Shown: positions 1,213-35,687 of the stretch, in pieces
How the letters are laid out: every line of letters begins with the position of its first letter
Position numbering within the stretch: position 1 is the first letter of the stretch
Virus record (IMG/VR): IMGVR_UViG_3300020045_013145
Location: 1-35,687 of that record
Reading direction: 5' to 3' (one strand)
Length of the DNA: 35,687 nucleotides
DNA from: a virus
Lineage: Duplodnaviria; Caudoviricetes
The notes under the pieces: generated by a model
The model's input: the letters and a program-made list of their open reading frames with translations, nothing else
The model's database searches: none
Told to the model about the DNA's origin: nothing
Program-made: the position numbers and the translations under genes

Positions 1213-1443
1213 ATGAGTATAAATTTAAACGCATTTGCCACAGAGGCAAAGCGAACACATAGGGTTTTGAATGCATATTGCGATTTATATAATGTTATTG
1301 GTATTCTTCAGGGCTATGCTTGTGTTCTGGGGGCAATAGACCGTCCGTATCTAGAGTTGATGATGGACGGATTGAAAGAATGCTCTCAAATTCTTGAACA
1401 AGTAGGTGCAACATTTAGGGCGGAATATGACAATTGCAATTAA
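1213..1443 (+). CDS. hypothetical protein
   Basis: AAGGA RBS; operon packing. Confidence 0.65.
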   Translation: MSINLNAFATEAKRTHRVLNAYCDLYNVIGILQGYACVLGAIDRPYLELMMDGLKECSQILEQVGATFRAEYDNCN

Positions 1444-1969
1444 TTGGATTACTGCTAAACGAAAAATATCTGAGCTTAAAGATTATGATCGCAACCCTCG
1501 CAAGCTTGGCAAAGAAGAATTTAAAAAACTAGTGGAGAGTCTTAAAGAAGATGGGTACCATAATAGGATTGCTATTAATCTTGATAATGTCATTTTGGGT
1601 GGCCATCAGCGAAAGAAAGCTTTACTTGCTGCTGGATGGAAGCCAGATGACGAAATTGAGGTTCTCGTGCCTGATAAACTATTGGTTGGCGATGAGTTTG
1701 ATCGTATTAACATCCGTGATAATCTGCCTTACGGTTCATTTGACTTTGATATCTTAGCAAATAATTTTGACGCTACTCAGCTGATAGAGTGGGGCATGCC
1801 AGCTGAATGGTTGCCTGTAAATAGCGAGTCTGAAGAAGAAGGTATTGATAATCAAGAAGTTAAAAGCGTATTTAATGTTACGGTTGAATGCGAGGACGAA
1901 TCAGATCAAGAAGCTGTGTTTAAACTCATGCAATCCAAAGGCTATAAGTGCAAGGTATCTAGCATATGA
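1406..1969 (+). CDS. ParB/Srx N-terminal domain protein (likely start 1427)
   Basis: ISELKDYDRNPR...LVESLKEDG...ILGGHQR...DN motifs of phage ParB-like proteins; short C-terminal domain (V.CE.E.DQ). Confidence 0.85.
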   Translation: MQHLGRNMTIAINWITAKRKISELKDYDRNPRKLGKEEFKKLVESLKEDGYHNRIAINLDNVILGGHQRKKALLAAGWKPDDEIEVLVPDKLLVGDEFDRINIRDNLPYGSFDFDILANNFDATQLIEWGMPAEWLPVNSESEEEGIDNQEVKSVFNVTVECEDESDQEAVFKLMQSKGYKCKVSSI

Positions 1970-3033
1970 CAGATGTAAATATCCAATTAACTTGCGAATT
2001 CAAAGAAAGCTTTCGTAATAGTAAAGTAATAGGCATGTTTGATTTGCCAGCAAAGCAGAAAATAACTAGAAACATTATCGCGCACTTGCCAATTGATAGT
2101 TTTGACTGGCAAATAGGATTAATTATAGGCGCTTCTGGCTCTGGCAAAACTACACTTGCTAAACATTTATTTGGAGATGCTTTTCATAAAGGCTTTACCT
2201 GGTCGCCCGAAAATAGCTTGTTAGATGATTTTGACTCAGAACTAGGAGTCAAAGAAATAGTAAATGCTTTATCGCACGTTGGCTTAAGCTCTCCTCCTAG
2301 CTGGCTTTTGTCATACGATAAATTATCTAATGGGCAGCAATTTAGAGCAGAGCTTGCTAGATTGTTAGTTGATAAAAAATCTTTAGTTGTATTTGATGAG
2401 TTTACTAGTGTTGTAGATAGAAGTGTTGCAAAAATAGGGTGCGCCGCAGTTAGCAAAGCCATTAGACAAACGGACAAACAGTTCGTTGCAGTTTCTTGTC
2501 ACGATGACATAACAGAATGGTTGGCACCAGATTGGATCTATGATATGACTAAATCTGAATTTAAACGGGTGTTTCTTAGGCGGCCAGATATCAAACTTGA
2601 CGTATTCAAAATCCCTAGAAAATATTGGTACATTTTTAAGCACTATCACTATTTAGGAGAAGACATAAGCGATGCTGCACAATGTTATATGGCTTTGTTT
2701 GAGAGGAAGCCCGTAGCCTTTTGCTCTTTTATACATTTTCCGCACCCAAGAGCTAAAAATATTAAGCGTGAACATCGAACAGTAGTTTTGCCAGATTTTC
2801 AGGGCGTGGGCATTGGGGTTAAGTTTAGTGAATATGTGGCGCAGCTATGCATAGATGATGGCTATAGATTTATATCGACTACTTCTAACCCTGCTTTGAT
2901 TCATGCTAGAGCGAAGTCAAGGCTTTGGAAGATGACAAAAGAGCCTGGATTTGTAAGCGCACCTGGTAAAAAGGCTGCAATTAAAAATGTCTCTCAATCA
3001 AGATTGACTGCATCATTTGAATATTACGGGTAA
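1966..3033 (+). CDS. ABC-type ATPase fused to GNAT (Mom-like) acetyltransferase
   Basis: Walker A GASGSGKT, signature LSNGQ, Walker B VVFDE, H-loop; C-terminal HHY(L) region and acetyl-CoA motif VLPDFQGVGIG. Confidence 0.85.
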   Translation: MTDVNIQLTCEFKESFRNSKVIGMFDLPAKQKITRNIIAHLPIDSFDWQIGLIIGASGSGKTTLAKHLFGDAFHKGFTWSPENSLLDDFDSELGVKEIVNALSHVGLSSPPSWLLSYDKLSNGQQFRAELARLLVDKKSLVVFDEFTSVVDRSVAKIGCAAVSKAIRQTDKQFVAVSCHDDITEWLAPDWIYDMTKSEFKRVFLRRPDIKLDVFKIPRKYWYIFKHYHYLGEDISDAAQCYMALFERKPVAFCSFIHFPHPRAKNIKREHRTVVLPDFQGVGIGVKFSEYVAQLCIDDGYRFISTTSNPALIHARAKSRLWKMTKEPGFVSAPGKKAAIKNVSQSRLTASFEYYG

Positions 3034-5510: not shown

Positions 5511-5855
5511 ATGAGTCAAGCAGCACAAATTCTACATTTAGTAAGTAATATCGAATTACCAGAGCATACCTTGGTTGCTAATAGCGCAGCAGTAACGCTT
5601 ATCAATGAAATTGATTTGTTAAAGAAGCAAGAAAAAGCTCTTAAAAAAGCGATAGAAGAAAAGATAGCCAAGGCTAAAGCATTGATGGGCAAAGCTGAGA
5701 CTTTGATAACCAAAGACGGTATAGAGCTAGCTACATGGAAATATAACAAAGATTCTGAAAGAGTTGATAGCAAGCGTTTAATGAATGAATACCCGTCGGT
5801 TTATAACCAGGTTGTTGAGTTGGTGTCGGGTAGTCGCGTGTTTTTGATTAAGTAG
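5511..5855 (+). CDS. protein resembling the coiled-coil/C-terminal part of YqaJ-like recombination proteins
   Basis: Coiled coil then ATWK...VDSKRL..EYP.VY...SRVF; no PD-(D/E)xK nuclease core. Confidence 0.55.
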   Translation: MSQAAQILHLVSNIELPEHTLVANSAAVTLINEIDLLKKQEKALKKAIEEKIAKAKALMGKAETLITKDGIELATWKYNKDSERVDSKRLMNEYPSVYNQVVELVSGSRVFLIK

Positions 5856-5864
5856 GGGAAAGCA

Positions 5865-6245
5865 ATGGGCTTAGATATTATGGTTGGTAGGGAAGAGATA
5901 TATAGACGATCATATATCAGTTTTGGATATTTTAGAGATGCAATTGCCAATGCTGCTGGCTATCCATTATATAGTCAATGGAGAATAAAGAGTGTACTGA
6001 GAGATCCAGAGGCCGAAAAACTTTGGCCTTTAGTAAAACAAGAATTGAAGGGGTCTCCATTGCGCATATTCCTATTACATAGTGACTGCGATGGCTATTT
6101 AGGAGTAAACACGCTTAAAAAAATGACACCAATTTTGGAATCTCTAATAGATAAAATAGAAGAAAAATATAAAGAAGAGTTGAAAGATTTATTAACCGGC
6201 ATAAACAAAGCTATTTCTTTAAATAAAAAATTGGAGTTTTGTTAA
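5865..6245 (+). CDS. conserved phage hypothetical protein
   Basis: MGLDI...SY..F..FR...FL.HSDCDG motif. Confidence 0.7.
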   Translation: MGLDIMVGREEIYRRSYISFGYFRDAIANAAGYPLYSQWRIKSVLRDPEAEKLWPLVKQELKGSPLRIFLLHSDCDGYLGVNTLKKMTPILESLIDKIEEKYKEELKDLLTGINKAISLNKKLEFC

Positions 6246-18438: not shown

Positions 18439-18689
18439 TTTGCCTCACAAGTTTTATTTCTTATGTGCGATTTTAAACCTTTAACAGCCTTGAATTCTTT
18501 ATGGCATTTAGGACAATCTAACGGCGCTGTAGCTGACCCAACATCTTTCAACTCACTCTCAGGCTTAACAATGACTACGGGCGGCGCGTTTTTTGCAGCA
18601 GCCTCAGATTCTTTTAATAACTGATACTCTAAATTGCGCCTGGCCTGTAAATATCTATGCCGTGCTTGCAACATTCTGTTGTTTTGCAT
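18435..18689 (-). CDS. small protein with C-terminal zinc finger
   Basis: CPKC.K.F....GL..H....C. Confidence 0.6.
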   Translation of the reverse strand: MQNNRMLQARHRYLQARRNLEYQLLKESEAAAKNAPPVVIVKPESELKDVGSATAPLDCPKCHKEFKAVKGLKSHIRNKTCEAK

Positions 18690-19365
18690 TTAATCTCGCT
18701 TTATATTTTGGAACACGCTTACCATTTAAATCCATAGCATGTATAGAATTGCCCATCAATTCTTCCCACGGCTTAATAGAATTCATATATTGATGCTCTC
18801 GCGCCCACTCTAGAGCATACGGACTATCTTGGGTTAGCTCGTAACAAGGCATAGCTTGAGTATAATGAATAAGCTTAGGCATAACCTCTGGAGGCTCCTG
18901 ATATCCAACTAAAAAGTTAAATTCTCTAGGCAAGTCGCCAATCTCATTCTCAGACGCCCATGCAATAGTATGCAAACCAGTGGCGGTTTCAATATATTCA
19001 GGCGTTAGAATCTTGCATTTAGCACAGTTAAAAAGCATAACCGATGCCCATTCGAACCTATGATTTTCATCTTTTGAAACCATAACAGTATATTTGTCAT
19101 CAGCTTTTGCAAATAATTCTGCAATATCAGCTGTCAATAAAATATCGGCATCTAAAAACAATGCCCAGCCTTCGTAGTTACATAGGTATGGAACTAAAAA
19201 TCTAGAAAATGTAAAAGGTGTCAACCCAGTACGCTTAATAGGCAACTGCTCAATAACCAGCGGAGTAATAGCCACTGGCTCGGAAGAATGTCTATAAACG
19301 CTCTGGGCGAGCACAGACAAGGATACGGGCTGACGTGGATCAGCTCCAATAAAAATACGTAGCAT
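18655..19365 (-). CDS. GT-A fold glycosyltransferase (GT8-like)
   Basis: IFIG.D.R, T.FTFSRFLVPYL, FLDAD (DxD), WASVMLFNC, LP.E.N.LVG, IHYT. Confidence 0.85.
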   Translation of the reverse strand: MLRIFIGADPRQPVSLSVLAQSVYRHSSEPVAITPLVIEQLPIKRTGLTPFTFSRFLVPYLCNYEGWALFLDADILLTADIAELFAKADDKYTVMVSKDENHRFEWASVMLFNCAKCKILTPEYIETATGLHTIAWASENEIGDLPREFNFLVGYQEPPEVMPKLIHYTQAMPCYELTQDSPYALEWAREHQYMNSIKPWEELMGNSIHAMDLNGKRVPKYKARLNAKQQNVASTA

Positions 19366-19373
19366 CGATACTC

Positions 19374-19559
19374 CTAATACTTCGTAGAGCGCGCAACTCC
19401 AGACACAGCGTCATGTCTAACTGATTTATTGCACATCTTAGAATTAGTTGTCATATCAACTGGGCCTGCAACTACTGAAGTGCGACCAGCAGGATTGCTC
19501 ATAGATGATATAGATTTGTAAGATGGAGATGATACACGTCCCTTAGATGCATTTTTCAC
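19374..19559 (-). CDS. hypothetical Ser-rich protein
   Basis: Overlaps upstream gene; fills the gap before the GT gene RBS. Confidence 0.5.
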   Translation of the reverse strand: MKNASKGRVSSPSYKSISSMSNPAGRTSVVAGPVDMTTNSKMCNKSVRHDAVSGVARSTKY

Positions 19560-20134
19560 TTTACGGTCTCCTGTAGAGCTTTCTTAAATTCCAAATAGCC
19601 GGGTCTAGGCTCGGCAACTATCCTATATTCTAGCACAATTTTGTTATCTTCATCATGTCTAACCTGCTCACAATGAAACATTCTAACAATAAATCGTTGC
19701 ATAATCAGCGTCAACCAAAACTGCTCATCTTCCTGAATTAAATGGGCATTTCTACCATCTGGCAAATGTTTTTTTGCTGGGCCATGATGTATAACTAAGA
19801 GTATAGAATGCTTAGTGACCCTATACAAATCATCTAACACATCTAACAAGCAGTCAGGCTCTATGTGCTCTAAAACATCAGAGCAAATCACAATATCAGC
19901 TGGCTCTGGAGTGTTGGCGTGCTCTGGTACACATGGATCATACTGCTTTATATCAAATGGCAAATTGGCCGCCAGTGTACCTTTACCACAGCCGTAATCT
20001 AAAATGTCTGTAGTTTTTAATTGCTCAGAAACGCCTTTTACATAATTGGCCAACTTTACCCCAGATGTTCCATATGCTTTTTTTTCAACATGCATTTGCT
20101 CGTTTAACTTTCTATACTCATCGGTAATTAACAT
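19556..20134 (-). CDS. class I SAM-dependent methyltransferase
   Basis: ILDYGCGKG, YDP, DIVICSDVLEHI. Confidence 0.9.
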   Translation of the reverse strand: MLITDEYRKLNEQMHVEKKAYGTSGVKLANYVKGVSEQLKTTDILDYGCGKGTLAANLPFDIKQYDPCVPEHANTPEPADIVICSDVLEHIEPDCLLDVLDDLYRVTKHSILLVIHHGPAKKHLPDGRNAHLIQEDEQFWLTLIMQRFIVRMFHCEQVRHDEDNKIVLEYRIVAEPRPGYLEFKKALQETVK

Positions 20135-21570
20135 CCAAACTCCCCTTTTACATTTTCAATTGCCATTTTAATCACTGCCTCCCAATCACCAACGCTTGGT
20201 TGCCAAATATTAGTAATAGAGTTGTACCAAGGCATATCTTGCCCATACACTCCCATTTGCCACAAATGCCGATACGGGCATAATTGATAAGCCCTTAACC
20301 CCGCAGCACCTGCTAAATGAATAACTGATTGCGGCACAGAGATAATTAAATCTAACTCGGTAATAAGCCCAAGCGTTAAATTATAATCATCTACCATATT
20401 TTTAAAATGGTGAATTTCTTTATGCGTGCTCTCGGTAAATCTATCAATCTCATGGATTACATTGTCATGATATTGTAGCGAGATAAAGTTTGCATCCAAA
20501 TCAAACAAAGGTAACAACTCGCCCATTGGCAACACTCTAGAATCTTTAGATGATTTATGTGTACCACCTTTCCATGATATGCCAATGTTCAGTTTTCTTT
20601 TGGGCAATCTAGCCAAGGTTTCTTGAGCCATCTTGCATGCATATTCTTCGGCAACCAGGTAAGGCTTTCTTGGAAAATCTTCCCATTTTTTTCTATAGAA
20701 TTTTGAAATAGAGCCAATAGGGATACGAGCATCAATGTCATAATTAGCGCACCAGGCAACTTCATGATCTTTACGTGTCCCATAACAATCTATATTTAAA
20801 TCCTTAAACCCACGTCTAAACATCTTATAAAGTCTAGGATGCGCATCGTAAATAACTTTTTTACAATCCTTAGCCATGTCAGGCAAAACCGTTGCAAACA
20901 TCAACTCATCGCCAATGCCCTGTTCACCGTAAACCACTACAGTTTGACCTTTTGTGCCATCCCATATGGGAGTCTCTTTTTTAGTTGGACAATAATTTCT
21001 AGCTTTCTTAGCGTTTTTTCTATCGCCAAAATCATAATTTATAAAACCATTCTCATAATCACCAACTTCTAAAAGCACTAAAGATTTATTCCATTTAGCA
21101 TTTTCATTGTCAGGATTTAATTTTAAAGCCTCATCAAAATGTATTAATGCTGTTTCTGCTGCATGCATGGCAACATGAGCCGAACCTAAGTTGGCAACAT
21201 AGTCTGATAGCATTTTGTTAGAGTTTGCGCCACAGTCTTGTTGAAATTTAGCACTTTTGCCAATCTCAATAGCACGCTTAAATGCGTTAATTGCCTTGTC
21301 AAAATATCCAAGTTTGCGATAACATCCGCCTACATTATTTATACATTCTGAAAAGTCAGGATGTAATAAAATAGCTTTTTCATAAGCCATAATAGCCGCG
21401 CCTATGTTTTCTTTTTTAGAATAATAGGAGGCCATTAGGTATAAGTAAAAAAAGTTATTTGGATCTTGATCTAGTAAGAATAAAATCTTAGGGTAAGCTT
21501 GCTCAACCTTCCCTTCCACTATCTGATTATGCGCCTCTTGCGCTAAATCCTTTAAATTAACTAATGCCAC
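20128..21570 (-). CDS. TPR-repeat + GT-B (GT9-like, FlmG/FlbA-type) glycosyltransferase
   Basis: N-terminal TPRs; W.G...VYGEQGIGDELMFA, IGISWKGG, FISLQY, LDLIISV..SV.HLAGA.G. Confidence 0.85.
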   Translation of the reverse strand: MALVNLKDLAQEAHNQIVEGKVEQAYPKILFLLDQDPNNFFYLYLMASYYSKKENIGAAIMAYEKAILLHPDFSECINNVGGCYRKLGYFDKAINAFKRAIEIGKSAKFQQDCGANSNKMLSDYVANLGSAHVAMHAAETALIHFDEALKLNPDNENAKWNKSLVLLEVGDYENGFINYDFGDRKNAKKARNYCPTKKETPIWDGTKGQTVVVYGEQGIGDELMFATVLPDMAKDCKKVIYDAHPRLYKMFRRGFKDLNIDCYGTRKDHEVAWCANYDIDARIPIGSISKFYRKKWEDFPRKPYLVAEEYACKMAQETLARLPKRKLNIGISWKGGTHKSSKDSRVLPMGELLPLFDLDANFISLQYHDNVIHEIDRFTESTHKEIHHFKNMVDDYNLTLGLITELDLIISVPQSVIHLAGAAGLRAYQLCPYRHLWQMGVYGQDMPWYNSITNIWQPSVGDWEAVIKMAIENVKGEFGC

Positions 21571-23444: not shown

Positions 23445-23472
23445 AATATAGCACGCTGAATTTAAAATGCAA
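23445..23472 (-). promoter_or_regulatory. sigma70-like promoter for capsid gene
   Basis: - strand TTGCAT, 16 bp, TG-c-TATATT. Confidence 0.55.
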
Positions 23473-23474
23473 AA

Positions 23475-23799: not shown

Positions 23800-24297
23800 A
23801 TGAGCGAAGATAAGGAATTTAACAATAACTACAAACAACATAGATCATATATTCACCATGTCATTGGGCGATATATCTCTGATGCGTGTACTGTCGATGA
23901 TTTAACCCAAAACACCTTTATGAAGGCATGGCTTGCTAGACACACATTTCGTGGCGATAGTGCTTATCGTACTTGGCTACATAGAATTGCAGTTAATACA
24001 GCTCTTGGATATTTAGTTTCTTTCAAAGAGAAATCATATAGATATAGGTATTCGTTTAATGATTATGACTTTAAAAGCCAAGATGATGTTTTAGAGGATA
24101 ATATTACTTATGAAGAGATAGAAAGCATTCAAAAAGCAATCGAAGAACTTCCTACAAATATGCGAAATGCAATAATCTTATATACCATCTATGGAATGTC
24201 TTATGAGCAGTTAGCAGAAATGTACGAAATACCTATTGGAACCATACGCTCACGATTACATAGAGCCAGGTATATACTAAAGAATGCTTTAAAGTAA
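23800..24297 (+). CDS. ECF sigma factor, RpoE/AlgU-like
   Basis: Region 2 DDLTQNTFMKAW...FRGDSA..TWL.RIAVN; region 4 LP...R.AI.L...GMSYEQLA.....PIGTIRSRLHRAR. Confidence 0.9.
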   Translation: MSEDKEFNNNYKQHRSYIHHVIGRYISDACTVDDLTQNTFMKAWLARHTFRGDSAYRTWLHRIAVNTALGYLVSFKEKSYRYRYSFNDYDFKSQDDVLEDNITYEEIESIQKAIEELPTNMRNAIILYTIYGMSYEQLAEMYEIPIGTIRSRLHRARYILKNALK

Positions 24298-24298
24298 A

Positions 24299-24329
24299 TG
24301 GCGCGAGATGGACGGTTGATACATCTCGC
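24299..24329 (-). ncRNA. microhelix-like RNA ending NCCA
   Basis: GCGAGATG-11 nt loop-CATCTCGC-GCCA. Confidence 0.45.
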
Positions 24330-24455
24330 ATAGTGGTTGACAGCATTAAGTGACATCTGGCATTCCCGGGACGCTATATATTGCTTCTACCAAGTAACCC
24401 AAAATGCTTGCATGTAGCCAACCAATACATGCTCGTCTGACTAGACGAGTGCGCA

Positions 24456-24512
24456 TGGAGCACGGCTATTTACCGAGGGGCTATCTAGATTCACCCGCCA
24501 GGAACACCGCGC
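24456..24512 (-). ncRNA. 57 nt tRNA-like mini-RNA
   Basis: GCGCGGT...GCCGTGC-TCCA 7 bp acceptor-like stem; central 7 nt loop ATCTAGA. Confidence 0.5.
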
Positions 24513-24603
24513 ATAAAAAGTTGGCCGTCTGTTCCGGCCTGTCAGAGTCTTTCCTCCGTCAGCTACCCGCCGCTGCGCCGTGAGTAGCATTTCGCAGCAC
24601 GAG

Positions 24604-24680
24604 TGGGAGCGCGGCTCGTGGAAGCACTTATCATGCGAACCGAATCGCTAATAGTCTGCCGCTATTTGTCACTGCCGCGC
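24604..24680 (-). ncRNA. 77 nt tRNA-like RNA
   Basis: GCGCGGC...GCCGCGC-TCCCA; internal AATAG/CTATT stem with 7 nt loop CGGCAGA; GCGA/TCGC and GTG/CAC hairpins. Confidence 0.5.
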
Positions 24681-24686
24681 ATAAAG

Positions 24687-24760
24687 TGATCGGGGGTGTA
24701 GGATTTGATACCTACATCTCTGGTGGCCTACCAGCGCAATCAATCTTAGGCTAACCCCCA
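24687..24760 (-). ncRNA. degenerate tRNA (Pro-like scaffold), non-canonical loops
   Basis: Acceptor TGGGGGT/ACCCCCG-ATCA; TA at 8-9; anticodon stem CTGGT/ACCAG with 5 nt loop; T-arm GTAGG-TATCAAAT-CCTAC. Confidence 0.65.
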
Positions 24761-24763
24761 ATT

Positions 24764-24820
24764 TGGAGCGTGGCAGAGGTAACTAACCCCATTCTCTGGT
24801 AGTTAAGCAGAGTGCCACGC
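24764..24820 (-). ncRNA. 57 nt D-arm-less tRNA-like RNA
   Basis: GCGTGGC...GCCACGC-TCCA; CTCTG/CAGAG stem; GGGG-TTAGTTA-CCTC T-arm-like. Confidence 0.55.
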
Positions 24821-25023
24821 ATAAATTGCAGGGGATTTGTTTATTACTCAAGACTCCCCAACTTAAGGCTTGCTATAACCCATGCAAGCGAGGGAAGCGC
24901 CCACGTTGAGCATACAAGCGGCCAATGGCTGACCACATCAGGATACTTCCGGCTAGCTTTGCCATACCTACCTTTGCTACCATTCTTTCCTCTGCTCTCT
25001 GCCGCACTTTCGACCGTTAAGCT

Positions 25024-26034
25024 TTAATAAAAGTCCTTTCTATAATCACCATTTCTTTTGGACTCTAGCTTTACTTGATTAAAGAATTCATCAAACTCTG
25101 AATCAGACATCTCATTAATACGAGATATATCATAACTCTTTTCTAAGTTTTTGCCACCAGCACGAGGTAATGATTTACCTTTTTGCATACCTTTAGAAAC
25201 TTTATCTAATTTGCTTTCAGTATTTGGCGAATTAAATCCTCGTGCTTTAGCAGCAGCATAAATGCGTTGCGCAGGATTAGCTCTTTCTTTGAAAGACTTA
25301 GCCGCTAGTGCTCGCTCATCTTCTCGCAGTAATTGCGCTGATTCTTGCGGCGAATACCCTAATGCCATGTATTCTTGAATCCTAGAGTTTTCTAAGAACT
25401 TATAAGCATCCATAAAGTCTGGCGCTTCTTTTATATATTCCATGGCTGATGCTTTATAAGCATTATCAAGAGCTGCTTCTGCTTGTTGCTGCTTGTAAGC
25501 TTGAGCTTGCTGCTCTAGATACTGCTGTTGAGCGGTAACAGTTTTATGTAGATTTTCCAATTGATAGGATTGGTAGCCCAGTGGATCTTCATTTGGATCA
25601 GGAATCATAACCTCTGGAGCTTTCTTAGGCGCACTCATACCTTGTTGCTGTTGTTGCATTAACATTTGTATTTGCTGTTGCAACAATTGATTTTGATACG
25701 CTTGCTGTTCTAGCTGAGCTTTTAATTCTTGTCTTTTGGATTCTGCGATACCATATGCTTTCGAAAAGTCCCGCTTAGATTGTTTTGTTGTATGCTCTGG
25801 TTGATACTGCTCATCTTCTGCTGAACTAGTCTCATATCGCTCTGTCTCTTGTCCACCATCGCCTGCTGAAAGCTGCTCATTAGATCTCTCGCCAAGCTCT
25901 TGCTCTTCTCCTGCATCTCCTTCTGTCTCGCTATCTTGTCCAGAAAGTTCACCGTATCCTTCGGGTTCATAATCACCTCTGCTTTCAAAGTATTTCTTTT
26001 CATCTTCATTCAAAACATTCATCGCATTTGCCAT
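25024..26034 (-). CDS. scaffolding protein
   Basis: After portal; acidic N-terminus, Gln-rich coiled coil, PDP.EDP, MSD.EF C-terminus. Confidence 0.8.
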   Translation of the reverse strand: MANAMNVLNEDEKKYFESRGDYEPEGYGELSGQDSETEGDAGEEQELGERSNEQLSAGDGGQETERYETSSAEDEQYQPEHTTKQSKRDFSKAYGIAESKRQELKAQLEQQAYQNQLLQQQIQMLMQQQQQGMSAPKKAPEVMIPDPNEDPLGYQSYQLENLHKTVTAQQQYLEQQAQAYKQQQAEAALDNAYKASAMEYIKEAPDFMDAYKFLENSRIQEYMALGYSPQESAQLLREDERALAAKSFKERANPAQRIYAAAKARGFNSPNTESKLDKVSKGMQKGKSLPRAGGKNLEKSYDISRINEMSDSEFDEFFNQVKLESKRNGDYRKDFY

Positions 26035-33807: not shown

Positions 33808-34026
33808 ATGGATTTAAAGCGATGGTGTTGGGTTATGTTGTTGGTGGGTTTTACTATTGCGTGTTTGATAGTGATTCGTACTGAGATAGTGTTAGTAAGG
33901 CGAGAGCTAATTAAGATTAGAATAATCTTAGATGAGTGTGGGTGTGAATGTGAAGAGGTGTACATGGTTGATCCAATTGAGCAAACGATCCAACCATGGC
34001 CATCGATAGATGATGTAGCAGCATGA
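33808..34026 (+). CDS. single-TM hypothetical protein
   Basis: GAGG RBS; hydrophobic N-terminus. Confidence 0.6.
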   Translation: MDLKRWCWVMLLVGFTIACLIVIRTEIVLVRRELIKIRIILDECGCECEEVYMVDPIEQTIQPWPSIDDVAA

Positions 34027-35566: not shown

Positions 35567-35687
35567 GTGGGTGTGAATGTGAAGAGGTGTACATGGTTGA
35601 TCCAATTGAGCAAACGATCCAACCATGGCCATCGATAGATGATGTAGCAGCATGATAAGGAAAGCTAAACATGAAGGTTCAAGGCAA
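35567..35687. repeat. 121 bp exact direct copy of 33938-34058 at contig end; probable chimera
   Basis: Direct comparison; junction interrupts an ORF starting at 35513. Confidence 0.9.

Follow-up and report, generated by a model that had tools for sequence, protein, structure and literature searches.

The T4 RNAs RNAC and RNAD have CCA ends and are processed by RNase P, and the P4 CI RNA is likewise a phage small RNA with a terminal stem that is cut by this enzyme. The dimer-initiation kissing loops of retroviruses are self-complementary hairpin loops whose sequence varies and stays palindromic. As described in PMC3014915 and PMC9697503, RNAC and RNAD are small late RNAs from the phage tRNA region with no established role. 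The C4 RNA of P1 and P7, a phage small RNA with a terminal closing stem, is cut by RNase P (PMC10731613), and synthetic tRNA-Gly minihelices are modified by the toxin FaRel2 (PMC11559606). The units described below would, like RNAC/RNAD or C4 RNA, be small phage RNAs with tRNA-type ends, but belong to neither kind. No sequence match to RNAC or RNAD was found in 50,697 phage records, and instead of a T4-type tRNA region the units occupy, as modular elements of 31-93 nt, operons of head genes in phages of 35-40 kb, most of which have no tRNA genes. They share the terminal closing stem of C4 RNA, and differ from C4 and CI RNA in the lack of an Rfam match, the late-operon place, and the tRNA-identity ends. 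A 7-bp acceptor, U73, and CCA without an anticodon recall the synthetic minihelices; unlike these, the units are genome-encoded, lack a canonical T arm, have pair 4 flipped, and contain an extra conserved interior. We consider them a variant of a loosely known kind, phage small RNAs with tRNA ends, whose function is predicted here; no published account of such units was found in the literature (mainly open-access main texts).

Array of units behind the scaffold gene

The window, i.e. the whole stretch of 35,687 nucleotides analysed, is a phage record of 35.7 kb encoding a P22-like portal, a large terminase, and a major capsid protein. Seven units and a structured spacer of 81 nt form an array with hardly any gaps on its late strand (Table 1), flanked by the stop of the presumed scaffold gene (25024) and by an ECF sigma gene in convergent orientation.

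Table 1. Features of the array and its surroundings in the window
Feature	Position	Strand	Description
Presumed scaffold gene	25024..26034	-	5' of array; named by position between portal and capsid; no family match
Weak unit	24827..24859	-	33 nt; 5 pairs only; z -0.9
u1	24764..24820	-	57 nt; Gly-type acceptor of 7-8 bp, two hairpins, U73-CCA; z -3.9
Degenerate cloverleaf	24687..24760	-	A73-UCA; 7-bp acceptor, anticodon-like and T-like arms, no D stem
u2	24604..24680	-	77 nt; Gly-type acceptor, long irregular hairpin, U73-CCCA; z -2.2
Structured spacer	24520..24600	-	four hairpins; folding z -2.9; nearly unchanged in two public contigs
u3	24456..24512	-	57 nt; Gly-type acceptor with G3-U70, internal loop, palindromic-loop hairpin; z -1.6
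Palindrome of u3 loop	24484..24489	-	TCTAGA, 6 nt; predicted dimerisation site
Closed unit	24331..24423	-	93 nt; 7-bp stem, A73-CUA; end one base before u4; z -1.2; weaker than u1-u4
u4	24299..24329	-	31-nt microhelix; 8 bp, G73-CCA; z -4.1
ECF-type sigma factor	23800..24297	+	convergent cargo gene; end 2 nt from u4
Sigma-70-like promoter	23445..23473	-	extended -10, before capsid gene; consensus match only; kept in relatives

The sequence-only reading that this analysis followed up had described part of this array. Its positions and ends for u1-u4 and the weak unit were all confirmed, and the length of 57 nt was indeed common to two units (u1 and u3); the list stands but was incomplete, since the degenerate cloverleaf and the 93-nt unit had been missed. 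The block was GC-richer as reported (52.6% in 24501-25000 versus 32-45% in nearly all other bins), and the proposed TAT-GCG start was borne out by four copies of TATGCG in 24290-25023, versus a mean of 0.32 and a maximum of 3 in 300 dinucleotide shuffles. A GCG-started 7-bp stem followed by N-CCA occurred three times in the same interval (0.013 expected; maximum of 1 in shuffles), and a search of the whole window, outside ORFs and on both strands, for AT directly before G, a 7-bp stem, and N-YY returned exactly u1-u4 (four matches). Since a bare 7-bp stem with NCCA in non-coding DNA was at the chance level (13 versus 8.5 and 7 versus 6.5 expected), the signal lies in the combination with the leader, G+1, and place. 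The units are real and discrete, and far above chance.

As had been expected, canonical tRNA calls were lacking in the window: ARAGORN found no gene, and the best Rfam hit had an E value of 0.73. The cloverleaf D, anticodon, and T arms were not formed (ARAGORN, Rfam, and folds). The degenerate cloverleaf was called by ARAGORN only at a lowered threshold; its mitochondrial mode at a low threshold called everything and was discarded. 

The leader, six outer acceptor pairs, and U73-CCA of u1 are identical to those of phage tRNA-Gly(TCC) genes (e.g. L084), in which D, anticodon, and T arms stand where u1 has other structures, and the ends and leader also equal those of a 43-nt unit in L333. These tRNA-Gly(TCC) genes are the likely source of the frame. 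Two loops of u1 (24805-24800 and 24785-24780) are mutually complementary over 6 nt. No homologue of the interior of u2 was found, and u3 is the founder of a four-member family. The ends of u4, which is present in two public contigs, resemble a tRNA-Asn gene that closes the array of L269, a phage of another lineage. The weak unit is probably what a deletion has left of a 59-nt G73-CCA unit, as seen in L310, as suggested by a gapped alignment and a common junction to the next unit.

From the gene order, the transcript of the scaffold gene likely continues into the array. Since the capsid gene has its own conserved promoter-like site, the array is probably the tail of the preceding transcription unit. 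The last hairpin of the spacer (24539-24523), followed by a U run, is terminator-like and lies mid-array. The spacer (24600-24520, - strand), for which no Rfam or phage match was found, may be drawn by eye as an H-type pseudoknot. Ahead of the array, a possible 36-codon ORF (24983-24873, - strand) has a GAGG ribosome site, and shows one silent and two non-silent changes in one public contig. Only four close homologues (48-85%) were found for the phage-borne ECF sigma factor, which opposes the late direction; its gene is missing from the slot in L081 and L202. Elsewhere in the window, glycosyltransferase, methyltransferase, and TPR genes within the structural operon (18655-21570) suggest virion glycosylation, and a 40-nt hairpin ending with GCCA is present twice on the + strand (33963-34002 and 35592-35631).

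Related units in two phage lineages

In total, 21 units were found in two distantly related P22-like phage lineages: 19 tabulated units, chosen by a scan and by eye, and two from the whole record of L309; two doubtful matches (L308 and L003) were left out of this count. The lineages are separated by portals with no match in a protein search and by capsids belonging to different PHROGs. For the lineage of the window, 80 capsid loci were available, most distant (45-65%), and ARAGORN found no tRNA in the 60 that were scanned. In L081 (scaffold identity of 70%), the slot is occupied by three different units, one of which (6069-6150) is a tRNA-like body (Rfam tRNA, 36 bits) within an extended stem, the extra GCG/CGC stem resulting in an over-long acceptor arm. 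L202 (69%) has a single unit, a u3 homologue 6 nt past the scaffold stop, and no unit was found in the slot of L001 and L002 (capsid identity of 88%). Further searches showed ~20 scaffold homologues at 62-87% and ~50 capsid homologues above 64%.

The second lineage was reached by a pattern scan, in which one of 71 loci, L269, contained a true u3 homologue. In L269, the capsid family of which differs from that of the window and the record of which has no match to the window's portal, a 79-nt Gly-type unit 5 nt past the portal stop is followed by the u3 homologue and then by a canonical tRNA-Asn. Nineteen of its 20 capsid relatives were inspected: three units were found in L310 and a single one in each of L316, L319, and L323, and the slot of six loci contains a tRNA gene in reverse orientation. 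Two additional Gly-type units precede the large terminase in the whole record of L309; one of them is the fourth u3 member. The order of units differs between phages, and the same slot is also home to tRNA-Asn, tRNA-Met, tRNA-Ile, a sigma factor, and a CAP-like gene; it is a cargo slot of late operons. The comparison of these loci showed that modular elements under selection, predicted to give RNAs with tRNA-like ends, are carried in such slots.

In four public contig sets (single contigs with a depth of 2-5; two are labelled RNA, but are probably DNA), u1 or a GCGCGG element starts straight after the scaffold stop, u1 is joined to the spacer, and u3 is followed by 44 other letters and then by u4. 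A u3 variant is changed at acceptor positions 3 and 5; it was not counted as compensatory because the partner bases are too near the contig end.

Wider searches added little. A pattern scan of viral contigs gave 119 loci, comprising phage tRNA-Gly genes and pseudo-tRNAs and mostly due to chance; nearly all of 28 inspected non-tRNA candidates were located within ORFs, and a further pattern scan gave one true match of four. Model R1 recovered from 88 sources the three seed units, L310 (E value of 4e-4), and end-only matches, and nothing else; from 15 further loci it recovered only a duplicate of L333. Its search of 38 records gave no match and was insensitive, since the known L310 match was missed. 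Against cultured phages and plasmids the units had no match beyond chance, apart from the tRNA-Asn of L269.

Several other elements were noted in these searches. A family of tRNA-Gly-ended pseudo-tRNAs of 74-75 nt, with odd D and anticodon arms, is intergenic in other phages (L104, L107, L152, L156, L160, L166, L169, and L181). An odd 86-nt tRNA-like element precedes the capsid gene in L034 (~1457-1700), and a reversed tRNA- or tmRNA-like 3' end lies in the scaffold-capsid gap of L006 (~5680-5725, - strand). Homologous cysteine-rich cargo genes follow the arrays of L202 (1040-1708) and L269 (2180-2866) (26% identity, E value of 2e-23), and a eukaryote-like CAP/SCP fold was suggested for the protein (Atlas, TM ~0.57, low-confidence model). 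These CAP/SCP-like genes may hint at a eukaryote-associated host. In the host search, the scaffold alignment had no match in genome contigs, the capsid matched only 18 distant loci (40-53%), and 101 genomes of one order gave one weak match; the sole name given by cluster look-ups was 'Pseudomonadota bacterium'.

Acceptor ends and the u3 family

All seven acceptor pairs were formed in 16 of the 19 tabulated units. Glycine-type ends, the commonest (9/21), had been claimed for the whole array; G1-C72, C2-G71, and U73 are indeed found in u1, u2, and u3, but not in u4 (G73) or the weak unit. These three elements, known as identity elements of E. coli tRNA-Gly (PMC9976931), recur on nine units with at least five unrelated interiors. 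The further Gly elements C35 and C36 of the anticodon have no counterpart, and the loop positions that correspond to them are variable among the u3 members. CCA is encoded in ten of the 21 units, the others ending with CCCA, CCG (as in one u3 homologue), CUA, CCU, UCA, UCU, or GCA. 

An A-2U-1 leader precedes 18 of the 21 units, a proportion partly due to the choice by scan; in a leader-blind scan, it was present in 11/16 late-strand slot matches versus 3/25 elsewhere (Fisher p 4e-4). A-2U-1 and RCCA are optimal for RNase P (PMC10731613), and A-2, U-1, G+1, the helix, and N73-C-C were all present in u1-u4. A T loop placed 12 bp from the cut may form in u1 (8+4 bp with a 7-nt loop), but not in u2-u4; this loop is dispensable for RNase P on C4 or SRP RNA (PMC10731613). 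Overall, the predicted ends fit the RNase P consensus.

The u3 unit is 78% identical to its homologue in L202 (scaffold 3' end: 71%) and 85% to that in L269. These three homologues have compensatory stem changes, and 95.6% of the cells of their alignment are paired, versus 38-56% in slid controls; the fourth member was recognised with model R1 (E value of ~1.5e-6). The conservation predicted for relatives was thus found, in the form of acceptor-stem units with compensatory changes. Covariation was a mixed result: two of 15 u3 pairs were changed on both sides, whereas the three-sequence alignment was not significant (53/500 shuffles). Conserved ends with divergent middles described the units within one array correctly, but not homologues, the middles of which were conserved at least as well as the acceptor stem.

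All four members have a 6-nt palindrome in the same columns before a closing UA, with three different sequences: TCTAGA (window and L269), GTCGAC (L202), and CGTACG (L333). The palindrome was noted after the second member, and the fourth, found later, had the third sequence. Although the outer pair may be plain stem pairing, intramolecular pairing is impossible for the inner CTAG, TCGA, and GTAC. That two independent replacements both remain self-complementary would be expected by chance at ~1/256 (hand count), or ~1/4000 at the genome 6-mer palindrome rate of 0.016. Loop palindromes were present in 8/19 units versus 2.5 expected from shuffled interiors (Poisson p ~0.01, post hoc and with two related units merged). 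In cofolding, the homodimer gain was 8-15 kcal/mol in the u3 family and 5-7 in palindrome-free units; the values were -14.6 for u3, -13.3 for L202, and 0.0 for the u3/L202 pair. Since four of four members keep a self-complementary loop, loop-loop homodimers are predicted: u3-type RNAs would pair into two-headed tRNA mimics. This is a prediction, because palindromes in such terminal loops may also result from inverted duplication. The loop resembles retroviral dimer-initiation loops in varying and staying palindromic, and differs in its place on a tRNA-ended phage RNA of 55-58 nt and in its dimerisation being predicted only.

Three further readings were rejected. A minigene (the leader makes ATG, and three homologues have a 7-codon ORF) lacks a ribosome site, its changes are non-synonymous, and the frames of L319 and L323 differ. 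The loop triplet of an armless decoding tRNA is not conserved, and an alanine mimic through G3-U70 in u3 is contradicted by homologues with G3-C70 or C3-G70.

The array might also be a decaying tRNA cluster, in which middles have been deleted and ends persist for a while. The tRNA-Gly(TCC)-like ends and leader of u1, the tRNA-Asn-like ends of u4, the alignment of the weak unit as a deletion product, the cloverleaf remnants in the window and L081, and many non-CCA tails are in line with such decay. On the other hand, interiors make new helices rather than eroded cloverleaves, and in the u3 family an interior unlike that of a tRNA has been retained, together with paired stems and the palindromic loop, in four phages from both lineages; we consider decay quite improbable as a general explanation. 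Decay is the probable explanation for the weak unit and a possible one for u4 and the cloverleaf unit, whereas u3 is not explained by it. The original claim that simple decay does not apply is thereby upheld for u3 and weakened for these three eroded-looking units. A canonical tRNA in the same array, as would be expected from decay, was found in one relative (tRNA-Asn of L269), and the u3 family is not decay-like.

Possible function of the units

The tRNA-like frame may serve only to recruit RNase P and 3' trimming, either as punctuation of late mRNA or for the release of an ordinary small RNA in the interior, as in phage C4 RNA. Besides C4 RNA, RNase P also cleaves a hairpin in an operon (PMC10731613). 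The first unit lies 5-8 nt past the stop of a head gene in six loci (L202, L269, L310, L316, L319, and L323), the 43-nt unit in L333 ends ~15 nt before the terminase start, and pyrimidines are retained at 74-75 in the tail variants, where pairing with the GG of RNase P may still take place. L319 and L323 also share an identical 27-nt interior run, whereas N73 and three acceptor pairs are changed (two on both sides), so what is conserved in this pair is not identity. This reading is opposed by the recurrence of U73, the RNase P optimum being R73, and by antisense targets in the own genome at the shuffle level: no contiguous match exceeded chance (best 13 nt, p95 12, nine queries), although short split targets would escape this search. 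It is also opposed by tandem arrays of three to seven units without a gene between them (window, L081, and L310), more than one cut needs. We judge it somewhat unlikely. Since up to seven units occur without a gene between them and Gly identity recurs on unrelated interiors, the released RNA itself appears to be the product, which favours a decoy.

The best reading, to which we give a probability of roughly 40%, is therefore that the units are modular small RNAs in an acceptor frame, released by RNase P and CCA-finished, likely as decoys for proteins acting on tRNA ends, the u3 type being predicted as dimeric. Read-through from the head genes would transcribe the array late, host RNase P would cut between U-1 and G+1, and 3' trimming or CCA completion would finish the end; CC-ended tails are completable by the CCA-adding enzyme. 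RNAs of the u3 type would dimerise through the palindromic loop. The released RNAs could then occupy host proteins that recognise tRNA acceptor ends, at a guess an anti-phage toxin or another tRNA-end enzyme. Gly-tRNA is a common target of GNAT toxins (PMC9177977), and a Gly minihelix serves as substrate for a toxSAS (PMC11559606). FaRel2, a Gly/Thr-specific toxSAS and the only Gly-specific one with mapped determinants, requires G4-C69, the flip of which abolishes its action on minihelices (PMC11559606). Its elements G1-C72, C2-G71, and Pu5-Py68 are present in u1-u3, but all nine Gly-type units have a pyrimidine at position 4 (G4-C69 flipped), so that a decoy target would be a protein other than FaRel2. 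Against a decoy we count this flip, the close relatives L001 and L002 without a unit, the encoding of CCA in fewer than half of the units, and the conserved interior, which a pure decoy would not need; the changes of N73 and acceptor pairs in L319/L323, the shuffle result for covariation, the possible origin of palindromes by inverted duplication, and their presence in only 8/19 units count against the best reading as a whole.

Alternatively, the units may be ribosome-invisible glycine donors for a tRNA-dependent transferase of the phage, e.g. a DNA-modifying enzyme of the Mom type. The precedent is Mom of Mu, a dimeric GNAT whose glycine comes from Gly-tRNA-Gly; its authors speculate that it reads the acceptor end only (PMC13219725). 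A ParB-like gene and an ABC-ATPase/GNAT fusion are present in the window (1406-3033); this pair, also found in 91 cultured phage records, is probably a modification system. In addition, U73 recurs in the units. Evidence to the contrary came from the GNAT itself (1966-3033; model pLDDT of 92.8), which keeps an invariant Q-G-x-G, an acetyl-CoA-type motif. Its top structural matches are acyl-CoA GNATs (1y9k: Z 14.8, rmsd 3.0, 135 aligned); the fold matches listed are generic GNATs, and Mom was not among the 50 listed in either search, a result compatible with kinship. Furthermore, the gene pair is shared (46%) by phage SL25, in which no unit or tRNA was found, complete genomes with non-Gly units have no ABC-GNAT gene, and C35/C36, a GlyRS element, is missing. 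In the Gly-unit records G001 and G106 the gene is absent from the half of the record covered. We regard glycine donation as likewise quite improbable.

In the most far-reaching reading, hairpins of 55-58 nt released by RNase P, with a Gly acceptor at one end and the self-complementary loop at the other, might dimerise into bivalent mimics, the two CCA ends of which would be offered to dimeric enzymes that use tRNA (toxins, synthetases, or a DNA-modifying enzyme dependent on tRNA). We think this unlikely; if true, counter-defence or the supply of a substrate would be achieved here by RNA alone. The ends of tRNAs are attacked by many anti-phage systems, to which the known phage answer is resistant whole tRNAs (PMC11559606). 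Acceptor mimics without an anticodon would, if the decoy reading is true, be a different answer. Since ARAGORN and Rfam are blind to the units, such cargo goes unannotated in phage genomes. The units also offer a handle on an old question, the role of the CCA-ended stable RNAs of the T4 type.
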